NCBI GenBank assembly: GCA_017541995.1
Contig: JAFXYD010000070.1
Coordinates: 508-64,507 of the forward strand
Direction: 5' to 3'
From: Oscillospiraceae bacterium
Lineage (GTDB): Bacteria; Bacillota; Clostridia; Oscillospirales; Oscillospiraceae
DNA: 64,000 nt
The notes beneath the pieces were generated by a model that did not search any database, was not told the origin of the DNA, and was given only the letters and a program-made list of their open reading frames with translations. Shown here in pieces: positions 14,301 to 61,197 of the stretch. Numbering within the stretch: position 1 is the stretch's first letter; the number at the start of each line of letters is the position of its first letter. Position numbers and translations under genes: made by a program.

Positions 14301-14574
14301 CCAGAACGCCTCCACCGGCACCTACCTGGGCAACTACAGCAGCTACCTCTACAGCCGCAGCTCCTACAGCTCCACCTACTGCCGCTGGAGCCTCTCCTGC
14401 AGCAGCGGCAACATGACCGTGAAGTCCACCCGCAGCACCAGCTATCCCTATCTGAGCTACTCCAGCAGCGGCTACTTCATGGTGAACTCCTCCGTGCCCA
14501 GCGGCCTGTACTTCTGGAAGGAGACCACCACCAGCACCGGCGGCTCCACCGTGACCTACTACACCACCGGCTGA
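11323..14574 (+). CDS. large secreted protein: signal peptide, clan CD (gingipain/clostripain-like) cysteine peptidase-like domain, then 2 x [Listeria-Bacteroides type repeat + about 170-aa beta-rich domain] separated by a Cys/His-rich linker
   Basis: AAAGGAG RBS. Signal peptide MSKQFKRLFAVLLVLAMVLSVMPTTSA. His-Gly / Cys dyad context FDSHGT ... YMGICLGM. GYSFVGW / GYTFVGW repeats. Units 12814-13566 and 13795-14571 are clearly paralogous. Strong C-ending codon bias. Confidence 0.7.
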   Translation: MSKQFKRLFAVLLVLAMVLSVMPTTSAVEMGSGRADRPLLENANEILDADVFASIALVEANAARPMGGQSRMTERDYVNLIPSIKEAIESSATYVPGTLQANGNFLVWETTTGMPCCYDPRMEAELHNTVNDPTPEEMAKIEAEAQALVETYAELRGGSATSTKIGLIQPYWESNSSYSDSSFTSYSPYYKTMWQNLYGATGGTGMRYSMTNATVDNIAKTIEECGLVIFDSHGTTDYSGSNGDYTSRANCSYLCLTTNSGVTSADTQAKTGTYGTYYECMKGSGYAYVSGTCIANHMTKNAPNSLVYMGICLGMATDGMYKGLRAKGVETVWGYSQSVSFVGERKYMESILGYVKDGDQFKDAVSKAKASLGKWDPAYSSYSQSQCVANHVAFPICVSDEDTYPGHGNVDTVQTVYSTWSLFGGSSTSYTVTATSNNTSYGTVSVSGNTITASPKTGYYASGYTVTSGSATVSQNGNVFTVTPSSDCTVRINFAAKTTVKITCVANGSTYTTVSGYAGDTLTLPTAATSVSGYSFVGWATSTVAETTTKPSYYAPGASVTANSNITVYAVYTKTEGTGGATVYELIDTAPSSWAGNWLISYGTSTSSLYFLKGLSGNTKYESASAGGAVLLSSTGMSYADGQISGATNAYVWKATADGSYYKLQNASTGTYLSSKSSYLYSQSSYSTSYGRWTLSMSSGNVTAKNSASSSYPYLSFSSSKYFMVGSSAPTGLYFWKETSGGTTYYTTSPSATDTHTHSYGAWSSNNNGTHSRTCSCGETETVNCTYSSVVTAPTTTSQGYTTYTCTVCGYSYKGDYTDPIEDTTYYTVTYSVPSGVTRPSSQTVAAGGSITLPTAGAPSGYTFVGWVTSTVSDTTTQPTTYTGTVTVNGSVTLYALYTHDVTTGGGTATTAYELLGSAPSDWTGNYLITYGTNTSSLYALKGLSGNTRYESTSAGGSALYSDAGMSYADGYMTGVPSVYVWKIAKTGSYYTIQNASTGTYLGNYSSYLYSRSSYSSTYCRWSLSCSSGNMTVKSTRSTSYPYLSYSSSGYFMVNSSVPSGLYFWKETTTSTGGSTVTYYTTG

Positions 14575-27664: not shown

Positions 27665-27767
27665 GTAGGGGCCGATGCCCACATCGGCCCTGACACATCA
27701 GGGTACGAAGGGCCGATGTGGGCATCGGCCCCTACGGCGCGCCAAATCCCGATTTGCGGGATTCACC
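27665..27767. repeat. nested palindrome (perfect 26-bp inverted repeat, each arm itself a hairpin) plus CAAATCCCGATTTGC hairpin module
   Basis: GTAGGGGCCGATGCCCACATCGGCCC (27665-27690), 19-nt spacer, GGGCCGATGTGGGCATCGGCCCCTAC (27710-27735). Then GCCAAATCCCGATTTGCGGGATT. Confidence 0.9.
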
Positions 27768-31277: not shown

Positions 31278-31445
31278 GGAAATGCGCAAATCGGGATTTG
31301 GCGAGTTCTCGCAAACGTCCGGTAGCGGCGCACATTGCAAACGCCCTGTAGCGGCGCACACCAGTGCGCCACGAGACCGGGTTCCGGTGGCGCACTGGTG
31401 TGCGCCGCTACGGGAGCGTTTTGCCAAATCCGAATTCGCGCATCG
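31278..31445. repeat. mosaic palindromic element, copy A (core IR 31348-31411)
   Basis: GTAGCGGCGCACACCAGTGCGCCAC-GAGACCGGGTTCC-GTGGCGCACTGGTGTGCGCCGCTAC, flanked by CAAATCGGGATTTGG and CAAATCCGAATTCG modules. There is also an extra half arm at 31322. Confidence 0.9.
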
Positions 31446-31506
31446 GTATAGAACCGGTGACTGGTGGACATACTCCCTGTAAAACCAAATATTGGGAGGA
31501 ATCGTA

Positions 31507-32097
31507 ATGAATCTGCAAAACACGAAAACCCTGGAAAATCTGATGCGGGCCTTTGCCGGGGAGAGCCTGGCCCGGAACCGCTACAGCTTCGCGGCGGAGC
31601 AGGCGGAGCGCGACGGTCTGCCGGTGATCGCCGCGGTGTTCCGCTACACCGCGGACCAGGAAAAGGAGCACGCCCAGGTCTTCGCCGACTTTCTGCGGAA
31701 GGGCGGCCGGGACAATCCGGAGCTCAGCGGCGGCTTCCCGGTGGACACCGCCGCCGACACCCTCTCCCTGCTGACGGCCGCCGCCCGGAATGAGGCGAAG
31801 GAGCATGAGGAGATCTACCCCGCCTTCGCCGCCGTGGCCCGGGACGAGGGCTTCGGGGAGATTGCCCGGAAGCTGGAGCTCATCGCCCAGGTGGAGCAGT
31901 GCCACGCGGGCCGCTTTGAGGCCTTCCGCCGTCTGCTGGCGGAGCACAAGCTCTTCGCCTCCGACCTGGACTGCGCCTGGATCTGCCTGAACTGCGGTCA
32001 CGAGTTCAGCGCCAAGGCCGCCCCCGAGCACTGCCCCGTCTGCGGGGAGGCGGGCTTCTTCATCCGGGTGGAGATGTCGCCGTATTCGTATCAGTGA
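31507..32097 (+). CDS. rubrerythrin
   Basis: Ferritin-like ExxH motifs, C-terminal rubredoxin-like CLNCGHEF...CPVCG. GGGAGG RBS before ATG 31507. Confidence 0.85.
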   Translation: MNLQNTKTLENLMRAFAGESLARNRYSFAAEQAERDGLPVIAAVFRYTADQEKEHAQVFADFLRKGGRDNPELSGGFPVDTAADTLSLLTAAARNEAKEHEEIYPAFAAVARDEGFGEIARKLELIAQVEQCHAGRFEAFRRLLAEHKLFASDLDCAWICLNCGHEFSAKAAPEHCPVCGEAGFFIRVEMSPYSYQ

Positions 32098-32103
32098 CAG
32101 ACG

Positions 32104-32240
32104 GAGACAAATTCGGATTTGTCGAGACGTTCCCGTAGCGGCGCACACCAGTGCGCCACGAGACCGGGTTCCAGTGGCGCACTGGTGTGCGCCGCTACCG
32201 GACGTTTGCGAGAACTCGCCAAATCCCGATTTGCACAAAC
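32104..32240. repeat. mosaic palindromic element, copy B (core IR 32135-32198), inverted relative to copy A
   Basis: Same 25-bp arms and spacer as copy A. Right flank GTGCGCCGCTACCGGACGTTTGCGAGAACTCGCCAAATCCCGATTTGC is the exact reverse complement of the left flank of copy A. Confidence 0.9.
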
Positions 32241-37217: not shown

Positions 37218-37231
37218 ATGTTCCTCCATCA

Positions 37232-37335
37232 GTTGAAAATTGAAAATGGAAAATTGAAAGCTTTCGGAGTTTTTCAGATCGCGATCTGAAAAACACATTC
37301 ATTTTCAATTTTCAACTTTTCATTTTCAATTTTTT
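37232..37335. repeat. heptamer-armed hairpin element (TTGAAAA type), copy 1; fills the whole trxB/PPase spacer
   Basis: Left arm GTTGAAAATTGAAAATGGAAAATTGAAAG, inner palindrome GTTTTTCAGATCGCGATCTGAAAAAC, right arm CATTTTCAATTTTCAACTTTTCATTTTCAATTTTTT. Confidence 0.9.
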
Positions 37336-38950
37336 AGCCCCACAGGGCGGACAGCATGGGAATAACCTGCTTCTTCCGGCTCATGACCCCGGGGAGGAAG
37401 AGGGTATTCCCCTGGGGCTCCACGCCGAAGGCCTGGGCGATGTCGTCGGCGTTGCCCAGGAAGATGATCTGGGTGCCCTCCAGCAGCACGTCGGTGAGCA
37501 TCAGAATCATGATGTTGTAGCCCTTTTCCCCGGTGGCCTTCTCCATTTCCGCCAGGAATTCCGCCTTGCGCTTGAGGATGGAGACGGAGTCCACGCAGGT
37601 GATCTGTCCCACCCCCAGATAGTGGCCGGCGATGTGGAAGTCCTTGAAGTCCGTGTAGAGCAGCTGCGCCGCGGTCTTGTTCTCTCCCAGGGAGGCGGCG
37701 AAGATGAACTTCCCCAGCTCCTCCAGATCCAGGCCCGCAATGCGGGCCAGCCGCTCGGCAATGGTCCGGTCCCGGAGCGTGGACGTGGGAGACTTGAAGA
37801 TGACGGTGTCGGAGAGAATGGCGGCGCACATGAGCCCGGCCATCTTCCTGGAGGGCATCAGGCCCTTTTCCTGGTACATCTCCGCCACAATGGTGGTGGT
37901 GCTGCCGATGATCTCGTTGCGGAAGAAGATGGGGTTGGCGGATTGAATGTCCGCCAGCCGGTGGTGGTCGATGATGCCCAGCAGCTCCACCTGGTCCAGA
38001 CCCGGCACGGACTGGGCCGCCTCGTTGTGATCCACCAGCACCACCTTCTTGCGGCGGGGCTTGAGCAGATGGTAGCGGGACAGGGTCCCCACCACCTTTT
38101 CTTGGGCGTCCAGGATGGGGTAGCAGCGGTAGCGGCTCTTGGAGACCACTTCCTTCACGTCGTCGAGGTAGTCCGTCAGATGGAAGGTCACCAGATCCTC
38201 GGACTGGCAGATCCGGGCGATGGGAATGGCCTGGAAGATCAGCCGGGCCGCCCGGAAGGCGGAGAAGGGGGTGGTGATGATGCAGGTCCGGGTCTCCAGC
38301 GCCCGCAGTTCCGGGCTCAGCTCCGCCTCGCAGAGGATCAGAGCGTGGATGTTGGACTCCAGGGCCCAGCGGATCACCTGGGGCTGGTTGCCGCAGACGG
38401 CGATGTAGTTCTCGTGGTCAAAGAGCAGCTGCTCCGAGCTCTTGGGCAGGCCGAAGATCACCTCGCCGGAGATGCTGTCCGCGACGGAGCCGGCCTCGTT
38501 CAGCACCCGGCCCTCCAGCACGGAGAGCAGGTTGAAGAGGGGGATGTCCTCCACCACCGGGTTCTCGATGGTCTGCATGTCGTAGTCCGCCACGTCTCCG
38601 GAGGAGAGCATGCCGAAGAGGGTGCCGTCCTCCTTGGTGACGGGGATGGCGGCGATGTTGGCGTCGTTGCGGAGAATGTTCCAGCCCCGGCCCACGGTGA
38701 GGGCCGCGCTGAGAGCGGGGGGCGTGTCGTAGTCCAGATCCAGCACCTGGGTCCGCATGTCCTTGATGAGCACCGGGGGCTCAAAGCCGAAGCGCTCCAG
38801 AATGCGTTTGCTCTCGTCGTTGAGGTGGCCCAGCCGGGCGGCGGTGTAGCCCCGTTCCCCCAGGGCGTTCCGCAGGGCGGTGTAGCTCATGGCCGATACG
38901 ATGGAATCCGTGTCCGGGTTCCGGTGGCCTGTCACAAAAACCTGTTCCAT
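37334..38950 (-). CDS. family II (DHH) manganese-dependent inorganic pyrophosphatase with CBS/DRTGG insert
   Basis: VTGHRNPDTDSIVSA, VDHNE, DHHR, C-terminal DHHA2. CBS-like internal region. 538 aa. Confidence 0.8.
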   Translation of the reverse strand: MEQVFVTGHRNPDTDSIVSAMSYTALRNALGERGYTAARLGHLNDESKRILERFGFEPPVLIKDMRTQVLDLDYDTPPALSAALTVGRGWNILRNDANIAAIPVTKEDGTLFGMLSSGDVADYDMQTIENPVVEDIPLFNLLSVLEGRVLNEAGSVADSISGEVIFGLPKSSEQLLFDHENYIAVCGNQPQVIRWALESNIHALILCEAELSPELRALETRTCIITTPFSAFRAARLIFQAIPIARICQSEDLVTFHLTDYLDDVKEVVSKSRYRCYPILDAQEKVVGTLSRYHLLKPRRKKVVLVDHNEAAQSVPGLDQVELLGIIDHHRLADIQSANPIFFRNEIIGSTTTIVAEMYQEKGLMPSRKMAGLMCAAILSDTVIFKSPTSTLRDRTIAERLARIAGLDLEELGKFIFAASLGENKTAAQLLYTDFKDFHIAGHYLGVGQITCVDSVSILKRKAEFLAEMEKATGEKGYNIMILMLTDVLLEGTQIIFLGNADDIAQAFGVEPQGNTLFLPGVMSRKKQVIPMLSALWG

Positions 38951-39740: not shown

Positions 39741-41223
39741 AGGAATCGGGTGATTGGATGAAACAATATAACGTAACGGGCATGAGCTGCGCCGCCTGCT
39801 CGGCCCGGGTGGAAAAGGCGGTGAAGGGGGTTCCCGGGGTGGAATCCTGCGCCGTGAGCCTGCTGACGAATTCCATGGGCGTGGAGGGCAGCGCCGATCC
39901 CGCCGCCGTCATCGCCGCCGTCACCGAGGCGGGCTACGGGGCCTCCCTGAAGGGGGCCGCCGACGGCGCCCGGAGCGTCCCCCAGGCCGCCGACGCCCTG
40001 GCGGACACCGAGACCCCCAGGCTGAAAAAGCGCCTGCTCTGGTCCCTGGGCTTTCTGCTGGTTTTGATGTATTTCTCCATGGGCCATATGATGTGGGGCT
40101 TCCCCCTGCCCAAATGGTTCGAGGGAAACCACGTGGCCATGGGCCTGGTCCAGCTGCTGCTGGCGGCCGTCATCATGGTAATCAACCAGCGCTTCTTCAT
40201 CTCCGGCTTCAAGGCCCTGCTGCACCGGGCCCCCAACATGGACACCCTGGTGGCCATGGGCTCCGGGGTCTCCTTCCTCTGGTCGGTCTGGGTGCTCTTT
40301 GCCATGACCCGGGCCCAGCTGGACGGGGACGCCGCCGCGGTGGAGGGCTATATGATGGAGTTCTACTTCGAGTCCGCCGCCATGATTCTGACGCTGATCA
40401 CCGTGGGCAAGCTGCTGGAGGCCCGGTCCAAGGGCAAAACCACCGACGCCCTCAAGGGGCTGATGAAGCTGGCCCCCCAGACCGCCGTGGTGCTGCGAAA
40501 CGGCGTGGAGACCACGGTGCCCGTGGCCCAGGTGCAAAAGGACGATCTGTTCGTGGTGCGGCCCGGGGAGGCCATCCCCGTGGACGGGGTGGTGGTAGAG
40601 GGCAGCTCCGCCGTCAACGAGGCCGCCCTCACCGGGGAGTCCATCCCCGTGGACAAGGCCCCCGGGGACCTGCTCTCCGCCGCCACGGTGAACCAGTCCG
40701 GCTTCCTGAAGGCCCGGGCCACCCGGGTGGGGGAGGACACCACCCTCTCCCAGATCATCAAAATGGTCTCCGACGCCGCCGCCACCAAGGCCCCCATCGC
40801 CAAGGCCGCCGACAAGATCTCCGGGATCTTTGTCCCTGTGGTCCAGGCCATCGCCCTGGCGGTGACGGGGATCTGGCTGCTGGCGGGGCAGGACTTCTCC
40901 TACGCCCTGGGCCGGGGCATCTCCGTGCTGGTGATCTCCTGTCCCTGCGCCCTGGGTCTGGCGACCCCCGTGGCCATTATGGTGGGCAACGGCGTGGGGG
41001 CCAAAAACGGCATTCTTTTCAAAACCGCCGTCTCCCTGGAGCAGACCGGCAAGGTGAAGATCGTGGCCCTGGACAAGACCGGCACCATCACCACCGGCCA
41101 GCCCGCCGTGACGGACATCCTGCCCGCCCCCGGCGTCAGCCAGGCGGAGCTCCTGGCCGCCGCCGTGGCCCTGGAGGAAAAGAGCGAGCATCCCCTGGCG
41201 AAGGCGATTGTGGGATATGCCGA

Positions 41224-41272
41224 GGGATCGGGGATCAGGGACCAGGGATCAGGGATCAGGGATCGAGGATTG
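41224..41272. repeat. heptanucleotide tract (GGGATCR) x 6-7 inside copA
   Basis: GGGATCG GGGATCA GGGACCA GGGATCA GGGATCA GGGATCG AGGATTG. Confidence 0.9.
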
Positions 41273-41393
41273 CAGAACTGAGCGACTTCCGGGCTCTGCC
41301 GGGGAACGGGCTGGAGGCCCTGCTGGAGGGCAGGCCTCTCATAGGCGGCTCGGTGAAATTCATCACGGAGCGGCTCCGGGCGGCAGGGGATAC

Positions 41394-41463
41394 GGGCCCT
41401 TCGGCTCCGCTGCGCTCCGCTCAGGACGACAAACCCGAAGCCGTTTCCCCCGTCCTTCGGGCC
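41394..41463. repeat. repeat module sharing a 26-nt identical core with the rluB insertion
   Basis: CTCCGCTGCGCTCCGCTCAGGACGAC at 41405-41430 is identical to 47713-47738. Translated in frame as PSAPLRSAQDD. Confidence 0.85.
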
Positions 41464-42099
41464 AAGGCCGACGAGCTGGCCGCCCAGGGCAAGACCCCCC
41501 TGCTCTTTGCCCACGGGGATCGGCTGCTGGGCCTCATCGCCGTGGCGGACGTCATCAAGCCCGAGAGCCCCGCAGCGGTGAAAGAGTTACAGAATATGGG
41601 CGTTAGAGTTGTTATGTTAACCGGCGACAACGAGCGCACCGCCCAGGCCATTGCCGCCCAGGCGGGGGTGGACGAGGTGGTGGCAGGCGTCCTGCCCGAG
41701 GGCAAGGAGGCCGTGATCCGGGAGCTGCAAAGCCGCGGCCCCGTCCTCATGGTGGGCGACGGCATCAACGACGCCCCGGCCCTGACCCGGGCGGACGTGG
41801 GCAGGGCCATCGGCGCGGGGGCCGACGTGGCCATCGACGCCGCCGACGTGGTGCTGATGAAGAGCAAGCTCAGCGACGTGCCCGCGGCCCTGCGGCTGAG
41901 CCGGGCCACCCTGCGGAATATCCACGAAAACCTCTTCTGGGCCTTCCTCTACAACAGCATCGGCATCCCCCTGGCGGCGGGGGCCTTCGTCAAGGCCTTC
42001 GGCTGGACCATGAACCCCATGTTCGGGGCCGCCGCCATGAGCCTGTCCAGCTTCTGCGTGGTGACCAACGCCCTGCGGCTGAATTTCGTGAAGCTGCAT

Positions 42100-42152
42100 A
42101 AAAGCCTTCCCCTTGAGGGGAAGGTGGCCCCGCAGGGGCCGGATGAGGTGGC
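42100..42152. repeat. R7-type double-hairpin repeat translated in frame between the CopA core and the C-terminal HMA domain
   Basis: AAAAGCCTTCCCCTTGAGGGGAAGGTG + GGCCCCGCAGGGGCC + GGATGAGGTGGC. Reverse-complement homologue of 5562-5625. Confidence 0.85.
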
Positions 42153-42384
42153 TCCCCCGGAAGAGAGCGGCATCGTGATCCAGGTTAAGGGCATGATGTG
42201 CCACAACTGCGAGCGCCACGTGCAGGAGGCCCTGGAGGCCCTGCCCGGGGTGGAGTCCGCCCGGGCGGATTTCCGGACTGGCCTGGTGGAGCTCCGGGGC
42301 GCCGCCTCCGAGGCGGAGCTCAGGCAGGCCGTCAAAGGCGCGGGGTACAAGTTCCGGAAAATCGTGGGCTGAGGCCGACAAATC

Positions 42385-42568
42385 AATGAAAATATGAAAC
42401 TATGAAAAAATGAAAATATTATGGTATTTTCCATATCTTCGATATGGAAAATGGTATTTCAAATCGTCCCGAAGGGACACCGAAATAGTTTCATAATTTC
42501 ATATTTTCATAGTTTCATTCTCCCCGTCAAATCCCGATTTGCACATTTTTGCGCAAATCGGGATTACG
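42385..42568. repeat. heptamer-armed hairpin element (ATGAAAA/TGAAACT type) followed by a CAAATCCCGATTTGC inverted repeat
   Basis: Arms 42385-42420 and 42484-42519 are imperfect reverse complements. Inner hairpins ATTTTCCATAT/ATATGGAAAAT and GTCCC-GAA-GGGAC. Then CAAATCCCGATTTGC...GCAAATCGGGATT. Confidence 0.85.
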
Positions 42569-44194: not shown

Positions 44195-44819
44195 GGAGCT
44201 TGCCCGCATCTGCGAGGCCATTCTGTTTGCCGCCGGGGAGCCGGTGGAGACGGAGCGGCTCTGCTTTGTCACCGAGACCGACCCCGAGGAGCTCCGGGCC
44301 GTCATGAAGGAGCTCATGGATCTCTACGCCTTTGAGCGCCGGGGCATTCGGATCCTGCGGCTGGAGGACAGCTGGCAGATGTGCTCTCAGAACGACCTGG
44401 CCCCCTGGGTCACCAAGGCCCTGGAGACCCGGAAGCCCCCCAAGCTCTCCGCCTCCCAGCTGGAGACCCTGACCATCATCGCCTACTACCAGCCCACCAC
44501 CAAGGCCTTCGTGGAGAAGCTCCGGGGGGTGGACAGCTCCTATTCCGTCTCCGCGCTTCTGAATAAGAAGCTCATCGAGGAGAACGGCCGCCTGGAGGCC
44601 CCGGGCCGCCCCATCCTCTACCGCACCACCCCGGACTTCCTCCGCACCTTCGGCCTGGAGTCCCTGGAGGAGCTGCCGGAGATGGAGAAGGTGAACTTCG
44701 CCGCTGCCTCTGAGGAGGCAGCGGAGGCAACAGGCAACAGGCAACAGGCAACAGGGGAGCAGGCAACAGGGGATGCCTCCCTACGGAAGCACGCAGACGG
44801 GAAGGAGGACGGGGTATGA
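44184..44819 (+). CDS. scpB: SMC-Scp complex subunit ScpB, with repeat-encoded C-terminal tail
   Basis: ICEAILFAAGEPV ... LSASQLETLTIIAYYQPTTKAFVEKLRGVDS. Tail ATGNRQQATGEQATG is encoded by (GCAACAG)n. Confidence 0.85.
   Translation: MDHKELARICEAILFAAGEPVETERLCFVTETDPEELRAVMKELMDLYAFERRGIRILRLEDSWQMCSQNDLAPWVTKALETRKPPKLSASQLETLTIIAYYQPTTKAFVEKLRGVDSSYSVSALLNKKLIEENGRLEAPGRPILYRTTPDFLRTFGLESLEELPEMEKVNFAAASEEAAEATGNRQQATGEQATGDASLRKHADGKEDGV
44727..44779. repeat. (GCAACAG)x3 plus degenerate units and a CCCTACGG end, inside the scpB 3' end
   Basis: Perfect units at 44727-44747, then GGGAGCAGGCAACAGGGGATGCCTCCCTACGG. Confidence 0.85.
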
Positions 44820-47042: not shown

Positions 47043-47957
47043 ATGAAAGAACGACTGCAAAAGCTCATCGCCGCCGCGGGGCTCTGCTCCCGGCGGACGG
47101 CGGAGGAATGGATCATCCAGGGCAAGGTCACCGTGGACGGGGACCTTGCCCGGCTTGGCGATACGGCGGACCCGGAGCGGAACGAGATTCTGGTGGAGGG
47201 CCGCCCTCTGCCCGCCGCCCCGGCCAAAACCACCACCGTTCTGCTGAACAAGCCCCGGGGGGTGGTCACCACCCTCTCCGACGAGAAGGGCCGCCCCACC
47301 GTGGCCCGGCTGCTGCCCCCGGAGCTGGGGCGGCTCTACCCCGTGGGCCGTCTGGACCAGTTCTCCGAGGGCCTGCTGCTGATGACCAACGACGGCGAGC
47401 TGGCAAACCGCCTGACCCACCCGGCGGGGGAGGTCCGCAAGACCTACCGCCTCTGGGTCTCCGGCTGGCATGAGGAGGCCCTGGCCCTGCTCCGGCGGCC
47501 CATCGAGCTGGACGGGTATCGGATCAAGCCGCCGGAGGTGCGGCTGGTGTGGGTGCGTCAGGCAACAGGCAACAGGCAACAGGCAACTGGGGACGCACCC
47601 GTCCGTAGCGGCGAGCATTGCTCGCCACAGGAACCCCGCTCCGATGAGGCAACAGGGCAGGGAATCGGGAATCGGGAATCGGGAATCGGGGACGCGGGAA
47701 CGGGTCCTTCGACTCCGCTGCGCTCCGCTCAGGACGACGGATCCGAAACGAGGGCGCACATAGCCACCGCCCTGCTGGAGATCACCATCCACGAGGGGCG
47801 GAATCGGCAGATCCGCCGCATGGCCCAGGCCGCAGGCCTCACCCCCACCCGCCTCCAGCGCGTGGCTGAGGGCCCCATTACCCTGGGGGATCTGAAGCCC
47901 GGCCAGTGGCGGGAGCTGAGCGAAGCGGAGCTTCGGGAATTGAGAATTGAGAATTGA
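47043..47957 (+). CDS. rluB: RluB-like rRNA pseudouridine synthase (S4 domain + RsuA/RluB catalytic domain) carrying a ~65-aa repeat-encoded insertion and a repeat-encoded C-terminus
   Basis: S4 domain RLQKLIAAAGLCSRRTAEEWI. Catalytic GRLDQFSEGLLLMTNDG. HEGRNRQIRRM. Last residues RELRIEN* lie in the GAGAATT array. Confidence 0.8.
   Translation: MKERLQKLIAAAGLCSRRTAEEWIIQGKVTVDGDLARLGDTADPERNEILVEGRPLPAAPAKTTTVLLNKPRGVVTTLSDEKGRPTVARLLPPELGRLYPVGRLDQFSEGLLLMTNDGELANRLTHPAGEVRKTYRLWVSGWHEEALALLRRPIELDGYRIKPPEVRLVWVRQATGNRQQATGDAPVRSGEHCSPQEPRSDEATGQGIGNRESGIGDAGTGPSTPLRSAQDDGSETRAHIATALLEITIHEGRNRQIRRMAQAAGLTPTRLQRVAEGPITLGDLKPGQWRELSEAELRELRIEN
47556..47760. repeat. composite insertion of four repeat modules inside rluB
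   Basis: (GCAACAG)x3+1 at 47562-47589. GTAGCGGCGAGCATTGCTCGCCAC hairpin. (GGGAATC)x4 at 47660-47687. 26-nt core at 47713-47738. Confidence 0.85.
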
Positions 47958-48007
47958 GAGTTGGAAACACCGATCATTCTCAATTCTCAACCCTCAATTC
48001 TCAATTC
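47936..48007. repeat. heptamer-armed hairpin (GAGAATT type) containing the rluB stop codon
   Basis: GGAATTGAGAATTGAGAATTGAGAG ... loop ... CTCAATTCTCAACCCTCAATTCTCAATTC. Confidence 0.9.
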
Positions 48008-48021
48008 AAAGGATAAGCGTT

Positions 48022-49368
48022 ATGAACGAATACGACGTAATCGTAATCGGCGGCGGGGCCGCCGGGATGTTTGCCGCCGTCCAGGCGGGCTACGCCGGGG
48101 CCAGGGTCCTGCTGCTGGAGCCCAACGAGCGCCTGGGCAAAAAACTGTATATTACGGGGAAGGGCCGCTGCAATCTCACCAACAACTGCTCCTGGCAGGA
48201 GGTGCTGAAAAACGTACCCACCAATCCCCGCTTTCTGTATTCCGCCCTGTCGGGCTTTACGCCGGAGGATACGATCAGCTTTTTTGAGTCCCACGGCTGC
48301 GAGACCAAGACGGAGCGGGGCAACCGGGTCTTTCCGGTGTCCGACAAGTCCGCCTCCGTGGTGGATGCCCTGAAGACCGCCCTGGGCTACGCCGGGGTGG
48401 AGATCCGCCGGGCAAGGGCGAAAGAGCTGCTCGTCGAAAACGGGCACATTTCCGGGGTCCGCACGGACAGGGGGGACTATTTTGCCCCGGCCGTGATCCT
48501 GGCGACGGGCGGCAAATCCTACCCCGCCACCGGCTCCACCGGGGACGGCTGCCGCATGGCGCAGGCCCTGGGCCACAGCATCGTGCCCCCCGTGGGCTCC
48601 CTGGTGCCCCTGGTGGAGGAGGGGGACTGCTGCGCCAAAATGCAGGGCCTGGCCCTGCGGAATATCAGCATTCGGCTGTATGAATGTACCGACGGGGCAA
48701 CAGGCAACAGGCAACAGGCAACAGATCCAGACTGTCATTCCGAGCGAAGCGAGGAATCCGTTTCCCCTTCCTCCGTCCCCTGTGCGACCCACGCCAAGCC
48801 CGTCTTTGAGGAATTCGGGGAGCTGCTCTTCACCCACTTCGGCCTCTCCGGGCCGGTGATCCTCTCCGCCTCGGCCCACATGGAAGCAGGGAAGGCGTAC
48901 ACGGTTGAGATCGACCTGAAGCCCGCCCTGGACGAGGCCACCCTGGACGCCCGGATCCTCCGGGACTTTGCCGCGGCCAAGAACCGCAGCTTCGAGAACG
49001 CCCTGTCGGGCCTCTACCCCAAGACCCTGATCCCCGTGATGGTGGCCCGCTCCGGCATCCCCGGCGACACTAAGGTGAACGCCGTCACCAGGGAGCAGCG
49101 CCGGGCCCTTCTGGAGCTCACCAAGCACTTCACCGTGGCAATCCGGGGCAAGCGCCCCGTGGAGGAGGCCATCGTCACCTCCGGCGGCGTTTCCGTGAAG
49201 GAGATCGACCCGAAAACCATGGAAAGCAAGCTGGTCCCCGGCCTCTACTTCGCCGGGGAAGTCATGGACGTGGACGCCTACACCGGCGGCTTCAACCTGC
49301 AAATCGCCTGGAGTACGGGCTACGCCGCCGCCCAGGCCGCTGTAAAAGGAACAGGTAATAAGGAATAA
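48022..49368 (+). CDS. HI0933/YhiN-like NAD(P)/FAD-dependent oxidoreductase with a repeat-encoded internal insertion
   Basis: YDVIVIGGGAAGMFAA, ITGKGRCNLTN, LFTHFGLSGP, C-terminal YFAGEVMDVDAYTGGFNLQ. Start at ATG 48022, because the listed extension is repeat-encoded. Confidence 0.8.
   Translation: MNEYDVIVIGGGAAGMFAAVQAGYAGARVLLLEPNERLGKKLYITGKGRCNLTNNCSWQEVLKNVPTNPRFLYSALSGFTPEDTISFFESHGCETKTERGNRVFPVSDKSASVVDALKTALGYAGVEIRRARAKELLVENGHISGVRTDRGDYFAPAVILATGGKSYPATGSTGDGCRMAQALGHSIVPPVGSLVPLVEEGDCCAKMQGLALRNISIRLYECTDGATGNRQQATDPDCHSERSEESVSPSSVPCATHAKPVFEEFGELLFTHFGLSGPVILSASAHMEAGKAYTVEIDLKPALDEATLDARILRDFAAAKNRSFENALSGLYPKTLIPVMVARSGIPGDTKVNAVTREQRRALLELTKHFTVAIRGKRPVEEAIVTSGGVSVKEIDPKTMESKLVPGLYFAGEVMDVDAYTGGFNLQIAWSTGYAAAQAAVKGTGNKE
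48694..48795. repeat. (GCAACAG)x4 plus GTCATTCCGAGCGAAGCGAGGAATC hairpin module, in frame inside the oxidoreductase gene
   Basis: Perfect units at 48697-48724. Translated GATGNRQQATDPDCHSERSEESVSP. Confidence 0.85.
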
Positions 49369-49421: not shown

Positions 49422-50108
49422 ATGGACAAGTTTATTTCCGTCGCCATTGACGGGCCTGCCGGGGCGGGGAAGAGCACCATCGCCCGGCGGGTGGCCCGGG
49501 AGCTGGGCTATCTCTACGTGGACACCGGGGCCATCTACCGCACCGTGGGCTACCACATGAGCCTCATGGGCATCGGCCCCAAGGACAGGGACGGCATCGA
49601 GCGCTGCATCGACGATGTGAATATCCAAATTGACTACCAGGACGACGGGATTCAGCACATGATCCTCAACGGCCAGGACGTGACGGAGCTGATCCGAACC
49701 CCGGAAATGTCCAAAATGGCCTCCGGGGTGGCGGCCCAGAGCTGCGTCCGGGACTACCTGCTGGACATGCAGCGCAGCCTGGCCCGTACCCACAACGTGG
49801 TAATGGACGGCCGGGACATCGGCACCGTGGTGCTGCCCCAGGCCACCGTCAAGGTCTTCCTCACCGCCTCCGCCGAGGTCCGGGCGGACCGCCGCTTCAA
49901 GGAGCTGACGGCCAAGGGGGAGCAGGTCAAATACGAGGACGTGTACGTCGACATTGTCAAGCGGGATGAACAGGACATGAACCGGAAGATCGCCCCTCTG
50001 AAGTGCGCCGACGACGCGGAGGTTCTGGACTGCTCCCAGCTGAGCATCGACCAGGTGGTGGCGGAGATGAAGGCCATCATCCGAAAGAAGGCGAGCAGCC
50101 ATGAATGA
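49422..50108 (+). CDS. cmk: (d)CMP kinase
   Basis: ISVAIDGPAGAGKSTIARRVARELGYLYVDTGAIYR. Confidence 0.9.
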   Translation: MDKFISVAIDGPAGAGKSTIARRVARELGYLYVDTGAIYRTVGYHMSLMGIGPKDRDGIERCIDDVNIQIDYQDDGIQHMILNGQDVTELIRTPEMSKMASGVAAQSCVRDYLLDMQRSLARTHNVVMDGRDIGTVVLPQATVKVFLTASAEVRADRRFKELTAKGEQVKYEDVYVDIVKRDEQDMNRKIAPLKCADDAEVLDCSQLSIDQVVAEMKAIIRKKASSHE

Positions 50109-50814
50109 GGCAACAGGCAACAGGCAACAGGCAACAGAGACCGTAGGGGCGGCCATTGGCCGTCCGCCCGAGGCAGCCGGGAAGAAGCCGAAGAAGAAGG
50201 AATACGGCAACGGCTTTGCCGTCCGATACATCTATCCCATTCTCTGGTGGATTCTGCGGATTGTCCTGTCTCTGTACCATTGGTCCAGCTTCCGGGGCCG
50301 GGAGAATCTGCCGGAGGGACCCTGCGTGATCTGCGCCAACCACTCCGGCTTCGCGGATCCGCTTTGGGTCTTCCTGCTGATGAAGACCCGGATGCCGCCC
50401 TGGACCATGGCCCGGAAGAGCCTCTTTGAGAAGCCGATCTTCGGCCGCTTTCTGGCGGCCTTTCGGGCCTTCCCGGTGGACCGGGACCACGCGGACATGG
50501 CCGCCGTCAAGAAATCCCTCTCCGTGCTGAAGAACGGGGAGAAGCTGCTGATCTTCCCAGAGGGAACCCGGGTGAAGAAGGGCAAGAAGTCCGAGCCCAA
50601 GTCCGGGGCGGTGCTCCTGGCCCAGCGGGCCGGGGTGCCCTTGGTGCCGGTGTACATCACCCACGGCCGCAAGCCCTTCCAGCCCATCCGGGTCATCATG
50701 GGCGAGGCCTACACCCCCGCCTACTCCTCCCGCCGCCCCGACTCCGAGGAGTTGGAGCGGCACACGGCGGAGCTGATGGAACGCATTTACGAGATGGGGG
50801 AAGCATCGAAATGA
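50101..50814 (+). CDS. plsC: 1-acyl-sn-glycerol-3-phosphate acyltransferase with repeat-encoded N-terminal extension
   Basis: ICANHSGFADP (NHxxxxD) and FPEGTR. The only in-frame start is ATG 50101 (ATGAATGA overlap with cmk), so the repeat is translated. Confidence 0.8.
   Translation: MNEATGNRQQATETVGAAIGRPPEAAGKKPKKKEYGNGFAVRYIYPILWWILRIVLSLYHWSSFRGRENLPEGPCVICANHSGFADPLWVFLLMKTRMPPWTMARKSLFEKPIFGRFLAAFRAFPVDRDHADMAAVKKSLSVLKNGEKLLIFPEGTRVKKGKKSEPKSGAVLLAQRAGVPLVPVYITHGRKPFQPIRVIMGEAYTPAYSSRRPDSEELERHTAELMERIYEMGEASK
50110..50172. repeat. (GCAACAG)x4 plus CCGTAGGGGC-type hairpin at the 5' end of plsC
   Basis: Perfect units at 50110-50137, then GACCGTAGGGGCGGCCATTGGCCGTCCGCCC. Confidence 0.85.
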
Positions 50815-58537: not shown

Positions 58538-59902
58538 ATGGCATTTGAAGGACTAAGCGAAAAACTCTCCAACGCCTTCCAAAAGCTGCGGAGCAAGGGA
58601 CGGCTGACCCCCAACGACGTGAAGGAGGCCATGCGGGAGATCCGCCTGGCCCTGCTGGAGGCCGACGTCAGCTATAAGGTCGTCAAGGACTTCATCAAGG
58701 TCGTCACGGAGCGCTGCGTGGGCGCCGACGTGCTGGAGGGCCTGAACCCCGCTCAGATGGTGGTGAAGGTGGTCAACGAGGAGCTCACCGCCATGATGGG
58801 CGGCGAGAACCAGAAGATCAACATGGCCTCCAACGGCCCCACCGTGGTGATGCTGGTGGGCCTGCAGGGCGCGGGCAAAACCACCAACGGCGCCAAGCTG
58901 GCCGGGTACTTCAAAAAGACCCAGAGCAAGCGGCCCCTGCTGGTGGCCTGCGACGTCTATCGCCCCGCCGCCATCAAGCAGCTGGAGGTGGTGGGCGGCC
59001 AGCTGGACATCCCGGTCTTCCAGATGGGCCAGGACGATCCCGTGAAGATCGCCCGGGAAGGACTGCGCCACGCCCAGCAGCACGGCAACGACATGGTCTT
59101 CCTGGACACCGCGGGCCGTCTGCACATCGACGAGAAGCTCATGGAGGAGCTCCAGGCCATCAAGGCCGAGGTCAAGCCCAACGAGATCCTGCTGGTGGTG
59201 GACGCCATGACCGGCCAGGACGCGGTGAACGCGGCCCAGAGCTTCAACGAGTGGCTGGACGTGGACGGCGTCATGCTCTCCAAGCTGGACGGCGACGCCC
59301 GGGGCGGCGCGGCCCTGTCCGTCAAGGCCGTCACCGGCAAGCCCATCAAGTTCATCGGCGTGGGCGAGAAGCTGGATCAGATCGAGCCCTTCCACCCCGG
59401 CCGTATGGCGGGGCGGATCCTGGGCATGGGCGACGTGCTGAGCCTCATCGAAAAGGCGGAGCAGGCCATCGACCAGAAGAAGGCCGCCGAGCTGGAGGAA
59501 CGGCTGCGGCAGAACAAATTCACCCTGACGGACTTCCTGGATCAGCTGAGCCAGCTGAAGAACATGGGGAATTTGCAGGATCTGATGGGCATGATCCCCG
59601 GCATGGGCAGCATGAAGGACCTGCAGGTGGACGAAAAGGCCCTGGGTCGGGTGGAGGCCATCATCCGCTCCATGACCCCCCAGGAGCGGGAGAACCCCGG
59701 CATCCTGGGCTCCAGCCGGAAAAAGCGCATCGCCGCGGGCTCCGGCACCCGGGTAGAGGACGTAAACAAGCTGCTCAAGCAGTTCCAGACCATGCAGCAG
59801 ATGATGAAGCAGTTCTCCGGCAAGGCCGCCGGAAAGAAGCTGAAAAAGCTGCAAAGACGGGGCGGCTTCCCAGGCATGGGCGGCTTCCCGGGCATTGGAT
59901 GA
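58538..59902 (+). CDS. ffh: signal recognition particle protein Ffh
   Basis: GLQGAGKTT, DTAGR, Met-rich M domain, C-terminal GGFPGMGG. Confidence 0.95.
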   Translation: MAFEGLSEKLSNAFQKLRSKGRLTPNDVKEAMREIRLALLEADVSYKVVKDFIKVVTERCVGADVLEGLNPAQMVVKVVNEELTAMMGGENQKINMASNGPTVVMLVGLQGAGKTTNGAKLAGYFKKTQSKRPLLVACDVYRPAAIKQLEVVGGQLDIPVFQMGQDDPVKIAREGLRHAQQHGNDMVFLDTAGRLHIDEKLMEELQAIKAEVKPNEILLVVDAMTGQDAVNAAQSFNEWLDVDGVMLSKLDGDARGGAALSVKAVTGKPIKFIGVGEKLDQIEPFHPGRMAGRILGMGDVLSLIEKAEQAIDQKKAAELEERLRQNKFTLTDFLDQLSQLKNMGNLQDLMGMIPGMGSMKDLQVDEKALGRVEAIIRSMTPQERENPGILGSSRKKRIAAGSGTRVEDVNKLLKQFQTMQQMMKQFSGKAAGKKLKKLQRRGGFPGMGGFPGIG

Positions 59903-60068
59903 GTTGAAAATTGAAAATTGAAAGTTGAAAGTTTCGGAATCGTTCAAATTGCCATTTGAACGATGAAAAAGAAAGATTCGACTTTCAATTCGCAGATCAT
60001 TCCTGTTTTTCAGATGGCAATCTGAAAAACACCCCCATTTTCAATTTTCACCTTTCAACTTTCAATTC
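59903..60068. repeat. heptamer-armed hairpin element (TTGAAAA type), copy 2, starting right after the ffh stop
   Basis: Shares arms, TTTCGGA and TTTTTCAGAT-N4-ATCTGAAAAACAC with 37232-37335. Carries about 65 extra nt, including the hairpin ATCGTTCAAA-TTGCCA-TTTGAACGAT. Confidence 0.9.
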
Positions 60069-60131
60069 GACCCGCACAGGGTTTCGATAAAAACAAAAAC
60101 AAATTATATTATCAAACAAGGAGATATCACC

Positions 60132-60655: not shown

Positions 60656-60658
60656 GGC

Positions 60659-60688
60659 AATTGAGAATTGAGAATTGAGAATTGAGAG
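60659..60688. repeat. (AATTGAG)x4 single-arm heptamer array upstream of rimM
   Basis: AATTGAGAATTGAGAATTGAGAATTGAGAG. Same unit as 47936-47960. Confidence 0.9.
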
Positions 60689-60690
60689 AT

Positions 60691-61197
60691 ATGATGAACG
60701 AAACATACCTGGAAACCGGAAAAATCGTCTCCACCCACGGCGTTCGCGGGGAGGTGAAGGTCCTGCCCTGGGCGGACGCCCCGGAGTTTTTACTGAAATT
60801 CAAGACCTTTTACCTGAATAACGGCACGGAGGCTCTCCCCGTGGAACAATCCCATGTCCATAAAACGACGGTGCTGATCAAATTCAAGGGCGTCGACAGC
60901 GTGGAGCAGGCCCAGCAGCTCCGGGACAAGGTGCTGTACATCGCCCGGGACGATCCCCACATCCCCGCCGGGACCGTCTTCCACGCGGACCTGATCGGGC
61001 TGCCTGTCCGGGCCGACGGGGCGGAGATCGGCAAAATCAAGGAGATTCTCTCCATGCCCGCCTCCGACGTCTGGGTGGTGAAGGGGGAGCATACTTATAT
61101 GATCCCCCAGGTGAAGGCCTTCGTCCCCTCCCTGGACTTTTCCAAGGGCTATATTGAGGTAAACTTGATTGAGGGAATGCGGACCGATGAGAATTGA
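60691..61197 (+). CDS. rimM: ribosome maturation factor RimM
   Basis: GKIVSTHGVRGEVKV. PRC barrel C-terminus. Start at ATG 60691/60694, since the listed TTG lies in the repeat. Confidence 0.85.
   Translation: MMNETYLETGKIVSTHGVRGEVKVLPWADAPEFLLKFKTFYLNNGTEALPVEQSHVHKTTVLIKFKGVDSVEQAQQLRDKVLYIARDDPHIPAGTVFHADLIGLPVRADGAEIGKIKEILSMPASDVWVVKGEHTYMIPQVKAFVPSLDFSKGYIEVNLIEGMRTDEN

Follow-up and report, generated by a model that had tools for sequence, protein, structure and literature searches.

An In-Frame Mosaic of Heptamer Arrays and a GTAG-Tagged REP Hairpin Is Probably Translated as a Tolerated Loop in RluB of an Oscillospiraceae Bacterium

We analyzed a 64,000-nt stretch of DNA from an Oscillospiraceae bacterium (assembly GCA_017541995.1, contig JAFXYD010000070.1, positions 508 to 64,507), which is called the window below and has a G+C content of 62.8%. 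Its rluB gene, encoding a 23S rRNA pseudouridine synthase of the RluB/RsuA family, contains a segment in which two heptamer arrays, a GTAG-tagged repetitive extragenic palindromic (REP) hairpin and one further GC-rich module follow each other in the reading frame. An earlier note on this DNA had pointed to the segment and offered two readings: the protein tolerates a low-complexity loop of ~65 aa, or the segment is removed or bypassed at the RNA or protein level. Our analysis favors the first. Repeat DNA has probably colonized a permissive loop of RluB, where it would be translated as a disordered, unconstrained and tolerated peptide.

An Ordinary RluB Enzyme With One Additional Segment

The 304-aa protein matched S4 (E 1.3e-09) and PseudoU_synth_2 PF00849 (E 7.4e-24) in Pfam, the N-terminal RNA-binding and the catalytic domain that mark members of the RsuA/RluB family. 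With phmmer it was aligned to E. coli RluB (4lab) at E 9.5e-33, in two blocks of query residues 1-157 and 246-301 between which 88 query residues stand opposite 21. An AlphaFold model was built with 30 homologues, and its top Foldseek matches were RluB-RNA (4lgt) and RluF-RNA (3dh3), with TM-scores of 0.77-0.78 on target length. R103, D105 (GAC at 47355-47357), Y135 and R255 were invariant across the homologue alignment A1. They correspond by alignment to Arg108, Asp110, Tyr140 and Arg194 of E. coli RluB, whose roles have been described (PMC3919597), and the protein has the catalytic Asp in motif II (GRLD), the intercalating Arg, the conserved Tyr and the motif III Arg. Since the domains, the model matches and the catalytic-motif residues are all conserved, these comparisons identify the gene as an ordinary, intact rluB save for residues ~172-241, in agreement with how the earlier note described the host enzyme, and pseudouridylation of 23S U2605 is predicted.

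The identical protein is present on 10 contigs; the 8 retrieved ones came from 8 different samples and carry two assembler naming schemes, and an assembly artefact is therefore excluded. In the protein database the same protein carries the name of an Oscillospiraceae metagenome-assembled genome (MAG). That rluB is a decaying pseudogene or an assembly chimera is scarcely conceivable. The source is indeed a MAG, a related allele (L084, see below) looks mosaic and the copA-like gene of the window is frameshifted, but besides the recurrence across samples, all motif residues are intact and synonymous changes outnumber non-synonymous ones in the rluB flanks of the segment. No disabling lesion, which the earlier note had considered, was found in rluB.

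The distance between the anchors ...RLVWV and ALLEITIHEG... was measured in 165 loci from species-representative genomes and metagenomes. Among the matches listed, to which all statements on these loci refer, the distance was 12 nt (a 4-residue turn) in 123 of the 165, from many phyla, and 0-24 nt in nearly all the remaining ones. Distances of 54-306 nt occurred only in close relatives, whose anchor-block identity was 82% or more. These long inserts were all multiples of three and stop-free, and six such loci were recovered without gene calling. In a profile scan of the GTDB species genomes with A1, the matches listed were all distant, insert-free orthologues, which serve as controls, and the metagenome scan contributed only four further inserts. 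These results indicate that the segment is an insertion and not a native domain. The orthologue alignment, a check suggested in the earlier note, delimits the insertion, and no homologous segment was seen at the turn of distant orthologues, as a native domain would have implied.

The closest insert-free allele was P0010 (locus L081), which is 92% identical to the window in the 5' flank (DNA alignment A2) and shares its gene order (S11 peptidase, rluB, HI0933-like, cmk, acyltransferase). Compared with this allele the insert adds 195 nt, and compared with the modal 12-nt turn 201 nt. Insert-free alleles occur within the same species-level group as insert-bearing ones. The "empty" turn of the P0010 lineage (L081 2846-2896 vs window 47535-47779) reads CAGGC-ATCGGGAAC, and an alignment is possible in which the start of the GGCAACA array abuts the end of the GGGAATC array (Table 1). 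This turn could have arisen by deletion from the two arrays and would then not represent the ancestral state.

Module Composition of the Insert

The modules are listed in Table 1 together with the other features of the window. In six-frame translation, frame 0 of 47556-47765 was stop-free and reads RQATGNRQQATGDAPVRSGEHCSPQEPRSDEATGQGIGNRESGIGDAGTGPSTPLRSAQDDGSETRAHIA, which is the peptide quoted in the earlier note for its in-frame segment of ~200 nt. The placement given there, between conserved strands and the RQIRRM motif, also agrees with our model, in which the insert lies between strands 165-173 and 241-249 and the latter leads into EGRNRQIRRM. The statement that the segment consists entirely of modules found elsewhere in the window holds for most of it; it fails for ~60 nt (47627-47659 and 47739-47765), which have no counterpart save for a 13-nt match, and the exact (GGGAATC)4 also has no second copy, its sole relative in the window being the (AGGGATC)6 array at 41223. 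The repeat character of the insert is real and far beyond chance, while "entirely" was overstated.

Table 1. Positions of the RluB insert, its modules and related features of the window.
Feature	Positions	Strand	Basis
RluB/RsuA-family 23S rRNA pseudouridine synthase gene, intact, 304 aa	47043..47957	+	ORF (open reading frame) list, Pfam, phmmer, Foldseek
In-frame insert, 70 codons including few native turn codons, predicted disordered loop	47556..47765	+	alignment A2, anchor distances, translation, pLDDT (predicted local distance difference test)
Module 1: heptamer array (CAGGCAA/GGCAACA) x4.1, read ATGNRQQAT	47559..47587	+	TRF (Tandem Repeats Finder)
Linker TGGGGACGCACCCGTCC	47588..47604	+	sequence comparison, fold
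Module 2: GTAG-tagged REP hairpin GTAGCGGCGAGCATTGCTCGCC, 7-bp stem, 3-nt loop	47605..47626	+	hairpin scan
Spacer	47627..47659	+	blastn-short of insert vs window
Module 3: heptamer array (GGGAATC) x4.4, sense strand, G3N4 G-quadruplex motif	47660..47690	+	TRF
Module 4: 39-nt GC-rich module, read PSTPLRSAQDD ("SAQDD" module)	47700..47738	+	blastn-short, shuffles
Non-repeated 27-nt tail, most strain-variable part of insert	47739..47765	+	alignment A2
Predicted tryptic peptides of insert: QQATGDAPVR, SGEHCSPQEPR, SDEATGQGIGNR, ESGIGDAGTGPSTPLR, SAQDDGSETR			
REPIN-like inverted doublets of GTAG REPs, intergenic	27665-27735 (27665/27710), 31348-31411 (31348/31389), 32135-32198 (32135/32176)	.	hairpin scan
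(AGGGATC)6 array in copA-like P-type ATPase gene	41223..41264	+	TRF
Second copy of module 4, in frame in copA-like gene, GPSAPLRSAQDD	41392..41430	+	blastn-short
(GGCAACA) array in ScpB C-terminal tail beyond Pfam domain	44725..44770	+	TRF
Palindromic element (GAATTGA)4 + inverse (TCTCAAT)4	47937..48007	.	TRF, fold
(GGCAACA)4 + "CHSERSEES" module, in frame in HI0933-like flavoprotein gene (48022..49368)	48696..48759	+	translation
Intergenic (AATTCTC) array, 4 units in window vs 6 in L172, L173, L175	49373..49405	+	TRF, contig alignment
(GGCAACA)4 + GTAG REP at cmk stop / annotated acyltransferase N-terminus	50108..50169	+	hairpin scan, copy count

The (GGCAACA)4 of module 1 (47561-47587) has 4 exact copies in the window against 0 expected (none in 100 shuffles), and the 32-nt core of module 4 (47707-47738) has 2 copies, also against 0 expected. 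Over its full 39 nt, module 4 is 95% identical to its second copy in the copA-like gene, and near-identical copies lie in reverse orientation within the RluB inserts of L091 and L092. By hand comparison, the GTCATTCCGAGCGAAGCG ("CHSERSEES") module at 48734-48759 also seems related to it, in reverse orientation. Module 2 has the features of a REP: it is a GC-rich palindrome of the 20-40 bp class, starts with GTAG (GTAGCGGCGAGC...), is multi-copy and has inverted doublets in the window. The folding energy of its hairpin was -13.5 kcal/mol (z -3.0), and the same REP variant follows a GGCAACA array at the 5' end of plsC in locus L085. Module 3 has the form of a GGGNATC array, with about four tandem units, and ViennaRNA with its G-quadruplex (G4) option predicted a 3-tetrad G4 in the mRNA over this array.

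Between the modules, the "GGGGACGC" lead-in recurs after array 2, and a related GGGGACGG was found after the plsC array of L085. In the spacer, 47644-47656 (GATGAGGCAACAG) is a junction that is also present at 50105-50117, and the rest is unique in the window. The tail (A2 columns 661-720) showed 83-85% identity between strains compared to 95-97% for the module part. The insert as a whole folded no better than shuffles (RNA z -1.5, DNA z -1.1); a single large structured RNA was accordingly dropped as an interpretation, and among structures only the REP hairpin and the predicted G4 stand out. A complementarity of 9 nt between GACGCACCC (47591-47599) and the flank GGGTGCGTC (47551-47559) was also dropped as evidence, since it was not seen regularly at the other arrays. 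The 70-aa insert peptide had no match in the protein database (1 candidate, none scored).

Different Mosaics at the Same Turn in Related Species

The best 120 homologue clusters were taken, and 103 of them had recognizable anchors. A basal stretch of 7-9 residues was present at the turn in 29 of the 103, and the other 74 had 17-174 residues, with 44 different lengths among them, and every one was open and in frame. One module vocabulary is shared across these enlarged loops: the REP-encoded "PVGA..." was counted 42 times, followed by GGCAACA arrays (24), "PLxGK" (17), SAQDD/FAQND (12), GGGATCA arrays (11), CHSERSEES (10), GAATGCA arrays (9) and GGAATCG arrays (8). Nearly all hairpins in the orthologue inserts start with GTAG, and their stems differ yet stay palindromic; the copy in L088 reads GCAG. 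The insert of L093 is a four-fold tandem of a 60-nt REP unit. These comparisons indicate that the RluB turn is a clade-wide insertion hot spot. Every variant keeps the frame: near-identical RluB proteins differ by heptamers in multiples of three, or by 84 nt where [array+REP] is tandemly duplicated. This conservation of the frame points to translation of the loop.

The conserved frame also bears on the second reading, in which the segment is removed or skipped as an intron, an intein or by programmed bypass of the kind known from T4 gene 60 and the mitochondrial byp elements. The byp elements are GC-rich, hairpin-containing and mobile-looking and lie inside conserved genes, and the rluB insert resembles them as a GC-rich, hairpin-bearing, mobile-looking element in a conserved gene. 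However, the 74 enlarged-loop clusters and the 6 long-insert loci are all open and in frame, and removal is unsupported because a spliced or bypassed element would not need to stay in frame. Moreover, Rfam found no intron or other RNA family in or near the insert, ~65 aa is far below intein size (roughly 130 aa or more), Cys/Ser/Thr ... His-Asn junctions are absent, and there is no stop or frameshift that would require bypass. We regard removal or bypass as very improbable.

Predicted Disorder and Relaxed Constraint of the Loop

In the AlphaFold model, strands 165-173 and 241-249 pair as a beta-hairpin, and the insert replaces the turn. Residues 176-238 had pLDDT values below 50 and no secondary structure, and the second strand runs directly into motif III (E251-M260). 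The model places the turn, as we infer, at the end of the strand far from the catalytic cleft, so that the insert would be a solvent-exposed surface loop. This answers the structural question of the earlier note, whether the insert maps to a surface loop: it falls on a hairpin turn and is predicted to be disordered, and a surface position is likely from the model. RluB and RluF themselves differ through small insertions in peripheral loops (PMC3919597).

The codon differences of the insert from L085 and L084 were 1 synonymous to 10 non-synonymous. In the 5' flank, the corresponding counts were 14:11 and 52:28, and in the 3' flank 10:5 and 14:8. Since the insert shows 1:10 while the flanks favor synonymous changes, the loop peptide appears unconstrained, and the codon counts point to purifying selection on the enzyme flanks and not on the loop. 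The insert therefore has the features of a Rickettsia palindromic element (RPE)-like insertion: it is absent from orthologues, in frame and stop-free, and lies at a permissive site of a host gene under purifying selection.

The L084 allele (P0008 contig, 1301 nt) is itself a mosaic. Its 5' 480 nt are ~80% identical to all others, it is window-like from about column 481 to 780 including the insert, and its last ~140 nt are identical to the L081 type. Either recombination or chimeric assembly of this short contig would account for the pattern, and the allele supports no strong conclusion.

A different possibility is that the loop, its RNA or its DNA has been co-opted, with the G4 or the REP hairpin tuning ribosome pausing or mRNA stability and hence RluB dosage, or with the loop binding on the pre-50S particle. 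The G4 predicted in the rluB mRNA would fit such a role, the GGGAATC heptamer forms G4 in vitro in the Xanthomonas work (PMC4692102), most clade members retain an insert, and in one comparison the module DNA was more conserved than the flanking synonymous sites. We nevertheless consider co-option unlikely. The inserts span 0-174 aa and their module contents are unrelated, the same species-level group also includes insert-free alleles, and the GGAATCG array occurs in only 8 of the 74 variants; furthermore, protein-level constraint is absent in the insert and the fold of the whole insert (z -1.5) is not significant.

Array Length Differences Between Strains

The conspecific contigs L172-L174 were 99.88-99.93% identical to the window over 12-21 kb, with 1-4 single-nucleotide polymorphisms (SNPs), and their only indels relative to the window were whole heptamer units. 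L175 (99.5% over 6 kb) is divergent at its end and has an additional 1-nt indel there. The copA-like array at 41223-41264 has 6 units in the window compared to 7 in L172 and L174. In the window the gene is frameshifted: 39758..41281 stops, giving a 507-aa truncation, and the rest continues in another frame to 42372, while in L172 and L174 the gene is intact and encodes 873 aa. The truncated product of the window is not on record in the protein database. The copA-like product (39758-42372) is a P1B-type ATPase with CPC and DKTGT motifs and HMA domains. The other polymorphic array is intergenic (Table 1). The window has fewer units at both, and assembly collapse may be the cause, though the arrays are shorter than typical reads. 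The copA-like difference stems either from heptamer slippage, as strain-level or phase variation, or from loss of a unit when the window was assembled.

By the same process, the two arrays might make rluB a slipped-strand contingency gene, in which gain or loss of a unit (7 = 1 mod 3) switches the enzyme off for population heterogeneity. In favor of this, whole-unit changes are the sole indels between 99.9%-identical conspecific contigs, one unit toggles the copA-like gene, and modelled slips of ±1 or ±2 units in either RluB array all truncated the protein before motif III. On the other hand, none of the 10 modelled slip products was found among about 15 billion proteins (a weak test), and all 8 clusters carrying the insert of the window are exactly 304 aa. 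The RluB arrays are also short (4 units), and rluB is a housekeeping gene whose switching would have no obvious benefit. The conspecific contigs were chosen by exact RluB identity and cannot reveal RluB variants, which makes this comparison weak both ways. Frame-changing repeat polymorphism between close strains was thus seen for the copA-like gene and not for rluB, and we find it quite improbable that rluB is a contingency gene.

Repeats in Other Genes and Intergenic Regions

The GTAG-type REP and heptamer identity of the modules, the clade-wide hot spot and the array length polymorphism were not recognized in the earlier note. In the hairpin scan, 11 hairpins were found in the window against 3.15 expected under our own hairpin criterion. 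Eight GTAG[C/G]GGC palindromes occur in the 64 kb, 6 of them as three intergenic doublets and 2 intragenic; they are family members and not identical copies. Further heptamer arrays of the window have GAATTGA, TTGAAAA and AATTCTC units, ~4 units each (TRF), and some form long hairpins at gene ends. Around rluB, close relatives had 0.44 near-perfect heptamer arrays per kb, against none at 60-75% identity and 0.006 per kb at still lower identity. These densities indicate that the heptamer/REP repeat system is lineage-specific.

Modules are read in frame in four other genes of the window, encoding the copA-like ATPase, ScpB, the HI0933-like flavoprotein and the acyltransferase (Table 1). The copA-like gene also has a "PLEGK" module near 42100, and the ScpB tail (44725-44790) is encoded by array and REP modules. 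The HI0933-like site (48690-48795) is a second intragenic hot spot, at which L085, like the window, has (GGCAACA)4 and a "CHSERSEES" module and L081 has "PLxGK"-type modules; moreover, a triple REP of 99 nt is added in frame to the HI0933-like gene of L085, at a position that corresponds to 48432 of the window. At the cmk/plsC site, L081 and L085 differ from the window in their modules. Array and REP encode the ~25 residues with which the acyltransferase begins in the annotation (50101-50170), and the real start of this protein may lie downstream. One composite, "(GGCAACA)n-GGGGACG..-GTAGCGGCGAGCA.TGCTCGCCA", is shared by rluB and the 5' end of plsC in L085, which suggests that array and REP travel together.

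The last RluB residues, LRIEN, and the TGA stop come from the palindromic element at the end of rluB. This element folds into a strong intercistronic hairpin (-35.8 kcal/mol, z -6.5) 15 nt upstream of the next gene, and in L081 both arms of the equivalent element are jointly replaced by TTGAAAA-type units. Palindromes with heptamer-array arms of the GAATTGA or TTGAAAA types are present at 47937-48007, 37228-37338, 59899-60074 and 60656-60691. Some have a central GTTTTTCAGAT..ATCTGAAAAAC hairpin. The palindromes run over stop codons and contribute the C-terminal residues of the upstream proteins.

Three further repeat structures were observed. A rubrerythrin-like gene (31492..32097) is flanked by inverted repeats of ~150 nt, 31283-31436 and 32110-32237, which are complementary at 98% over 52 nt and at 86% over 100 nt and each have a REPIN-like doublet of GTAGCGGCGCACACCAGTGCGCC; gene and repeats together may form a mobile or invertible cassette. 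An AT-rich inverted repeat of 8-nt tandem units (ATGAAAAT x4, ATAGTTTC x4) occupies 42386-42518, between the copA-like gene and an M50 peptidase gene. A 1083-aa ORF at 11323-14574 contains internal segments of ~480 nt repeated at 987-nt spacing (78% identity), is rich in Thr/Ser/Tyr, and looks from its sequence like a repetitive surface protein.

Discussion

The predicted disorder at the turn, the invariant catalytic residues, the purifying selection on the flanks and the varied in-frame mosaics in relatives all support the view that RluB tolerates a low-complexity loop of ~65 aa. In the mechanism that we propose, short interspersed modules would populate the genome of this lineage, mostly at gene ends and in intergenic DNA. 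Two heptamer arrays, a GTAG REP hairpin and one further GC-rich module would have lodged in the turn of a peripheral beta-hairpin of RluB, either by REP transposition of the type driven by REP-associated tyrosine transposases (RAYTs), or by recombination or gene conversion between copies. With a length that is a multiple of three and no stop in the frame of the gene, the mosaic would be transcribed and translated with rluB, and its product would be a disordered surface loop that does no harm to the enzyme. The loop peptide would have no sequence-specific role, selection acting only on the open frame. The hot spot would arise from the permissive turn together with turnover of resident modules by slippage, tandem duplication, module exchange and nested or further insertion, and this turnover would leave related species with different mosaics at the same codons.

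Several observations weigh against this proposal. No Y1_Tnp domain was found in the 10 ORFs near REPs in the 64-kb window, and tblastn with an E. coli RAYT sequence gave no match in the window. Neither a target-site duplication nor a clean boundary was seen in the filled-versus-empty comparisons (L081, L085). Sense-strand G4 motifs within ORFs, to which the motif of module 3 belongs, have been reported to be under-represented (PMC4692102) and are maybe not neutral. The module part of the insert is 95-97% identical to L084 though the 5' flank of L084 is only 80% identical, which may reflect recombination, a chimeric contig, or a constraint at the DNA or RNA level beyond a "junk loop". In addition, the homologue clusters stem from gene callers, so that frameshifted alleles are under-sampled.

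Many MAG proteins of gut Oscillospiraceae will hold repeat-derived low-complexity loops, tails and N-termini. Such segments distort length-based quality control, homology scores and structure prediction, and should be read as repeat DNA and not as domains. The 44 or more natural insert lengths at the RluB turn, together with the sites in neighboring genes, make a natural insertion-tolerance map. Heptamer arrays may also drive phenotypic differences that SNP-based strain tracking misses, given that one change inactivates a copper-ATPase-like gene. A bolder and rather doubtful extension is that, in this uncultured clade, heptamer arrays and GTAG REPs are an undescribed composite system that moves or recombines as units and rewrites the same permissive loops again and again, so that housekeeping enzymes acquire hypervariable disordered loops, with the arrays as the fastest-mutating sites of the genome and as frame switches, as in copA. 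If true, gut commensals would have a mechanism in which loop diversification and contingency are combined.

Comparison With Known Repeat Systems

In a literature search, no paper mentioning these module sequences was found, nor anything relevant on RAYT or REPIN in Clostridia. The closest relatives by form are the GTAG-tagged REPs and their doublets, the REPINs (Bertels and Rainey, 2011, PMC3116915; Di Nocera et al., 2013, PMC3733652). In-frame intragenic REPs, single or in clusters encoding 43-82 aa, have been argued to sit in loops or linkers (PMC3733652). Module 2 agrees with these elements as a 22-nt GC-rich palindrome with a 5' GTAG, as do the inverted intergenic doublets of the window and the in-frame reading and loop or linker placement of REPs inside ORFs. 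In contrast, the host here belongs to the Clostridia, while the words Clostridi* and Firmicutes are absent from PMC3733652. Furthermore, the REP is here one of four modules and joined to heptamer arrays, a single protein turn has dozens of alternative mosaics across species, and no RAYT gene was found in the window. The bacterial interspersed mosaic elements (BIMEs) of E. coli are extragenic mosaics of REP palindromic units and a few other short conserved motifs. The RluB insert is likewise a mosaic of a REP palindrome and short motifs, whereas BIMEs lie outside genes, their motifs are unrelated, and heptamer arrays are not among their components.

RPEs lie in frame in functional genes (Ogata et al., 2000, as cited in PMC3733652 and PMC3184786). 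They share with the RluB insert that small palindromic repeats stand in frame in conserved genes, are absent from orthologues and are tolerated as extra peptide. They differ in having no sequence relation to the modules and in being single units of 105-146 nt, compared with mosaics of 20-40-nt modules and arrays here. To our knowledge, recurrent occupation of one site by differing contents is not an RPE feature.

The (GGGAATC)n arrays of Xanthomonas form G4 in vitro, have about four units and often form inverted pairs immediately downstream of ORFs (Rehm et al., 2015, PMC4692102); 7-11% of them are intragenic, and the unit in Nostoc is GGGGA(C/T)T. Module 3 has the identical unit GGGAATC and about four copies of it, and other arrays of the window are inverted pairs a few nt from stops. 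Unlike in Xanthomonas, the arrays here are fused to REP hairpins, many are in coding frame, and the phylum is a different one. The unrelated units GGCAACA, GAATTGA, TTGAAAA and GAATGCA share the four-unit habit, and G4 formation therefore cannot be its general reason. Cyanobacteria have short tandemly repeated repetitive (STRR) heptamers, and heptamer arrays are associated with small palindromes there. Together with the Xanthomonas arrays, this association hints at a recurrent link of 7-nt arrays and REP-like hairpins across phyla.

Classical slipped-strand contingency loci have units of 1-5 nt in surface or restriction genes. The heptamer arrays resemble them in that the unit is not a multiple of three, lies inside ORFs and switches the frame of the copA-like gene through whole-unit polymorphism; they differ in that rluB itself showed no switching. 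It is established that REPs and RPEs insert in frame into functional genes, and four-unit GGGAATC arrays are likewise known. What differs here is the host lineage, the coupling of heptamer arrays with GTAG REPs in mosaics read in frame, the hypervariability of one turn, and the array changes between near-identical strains.

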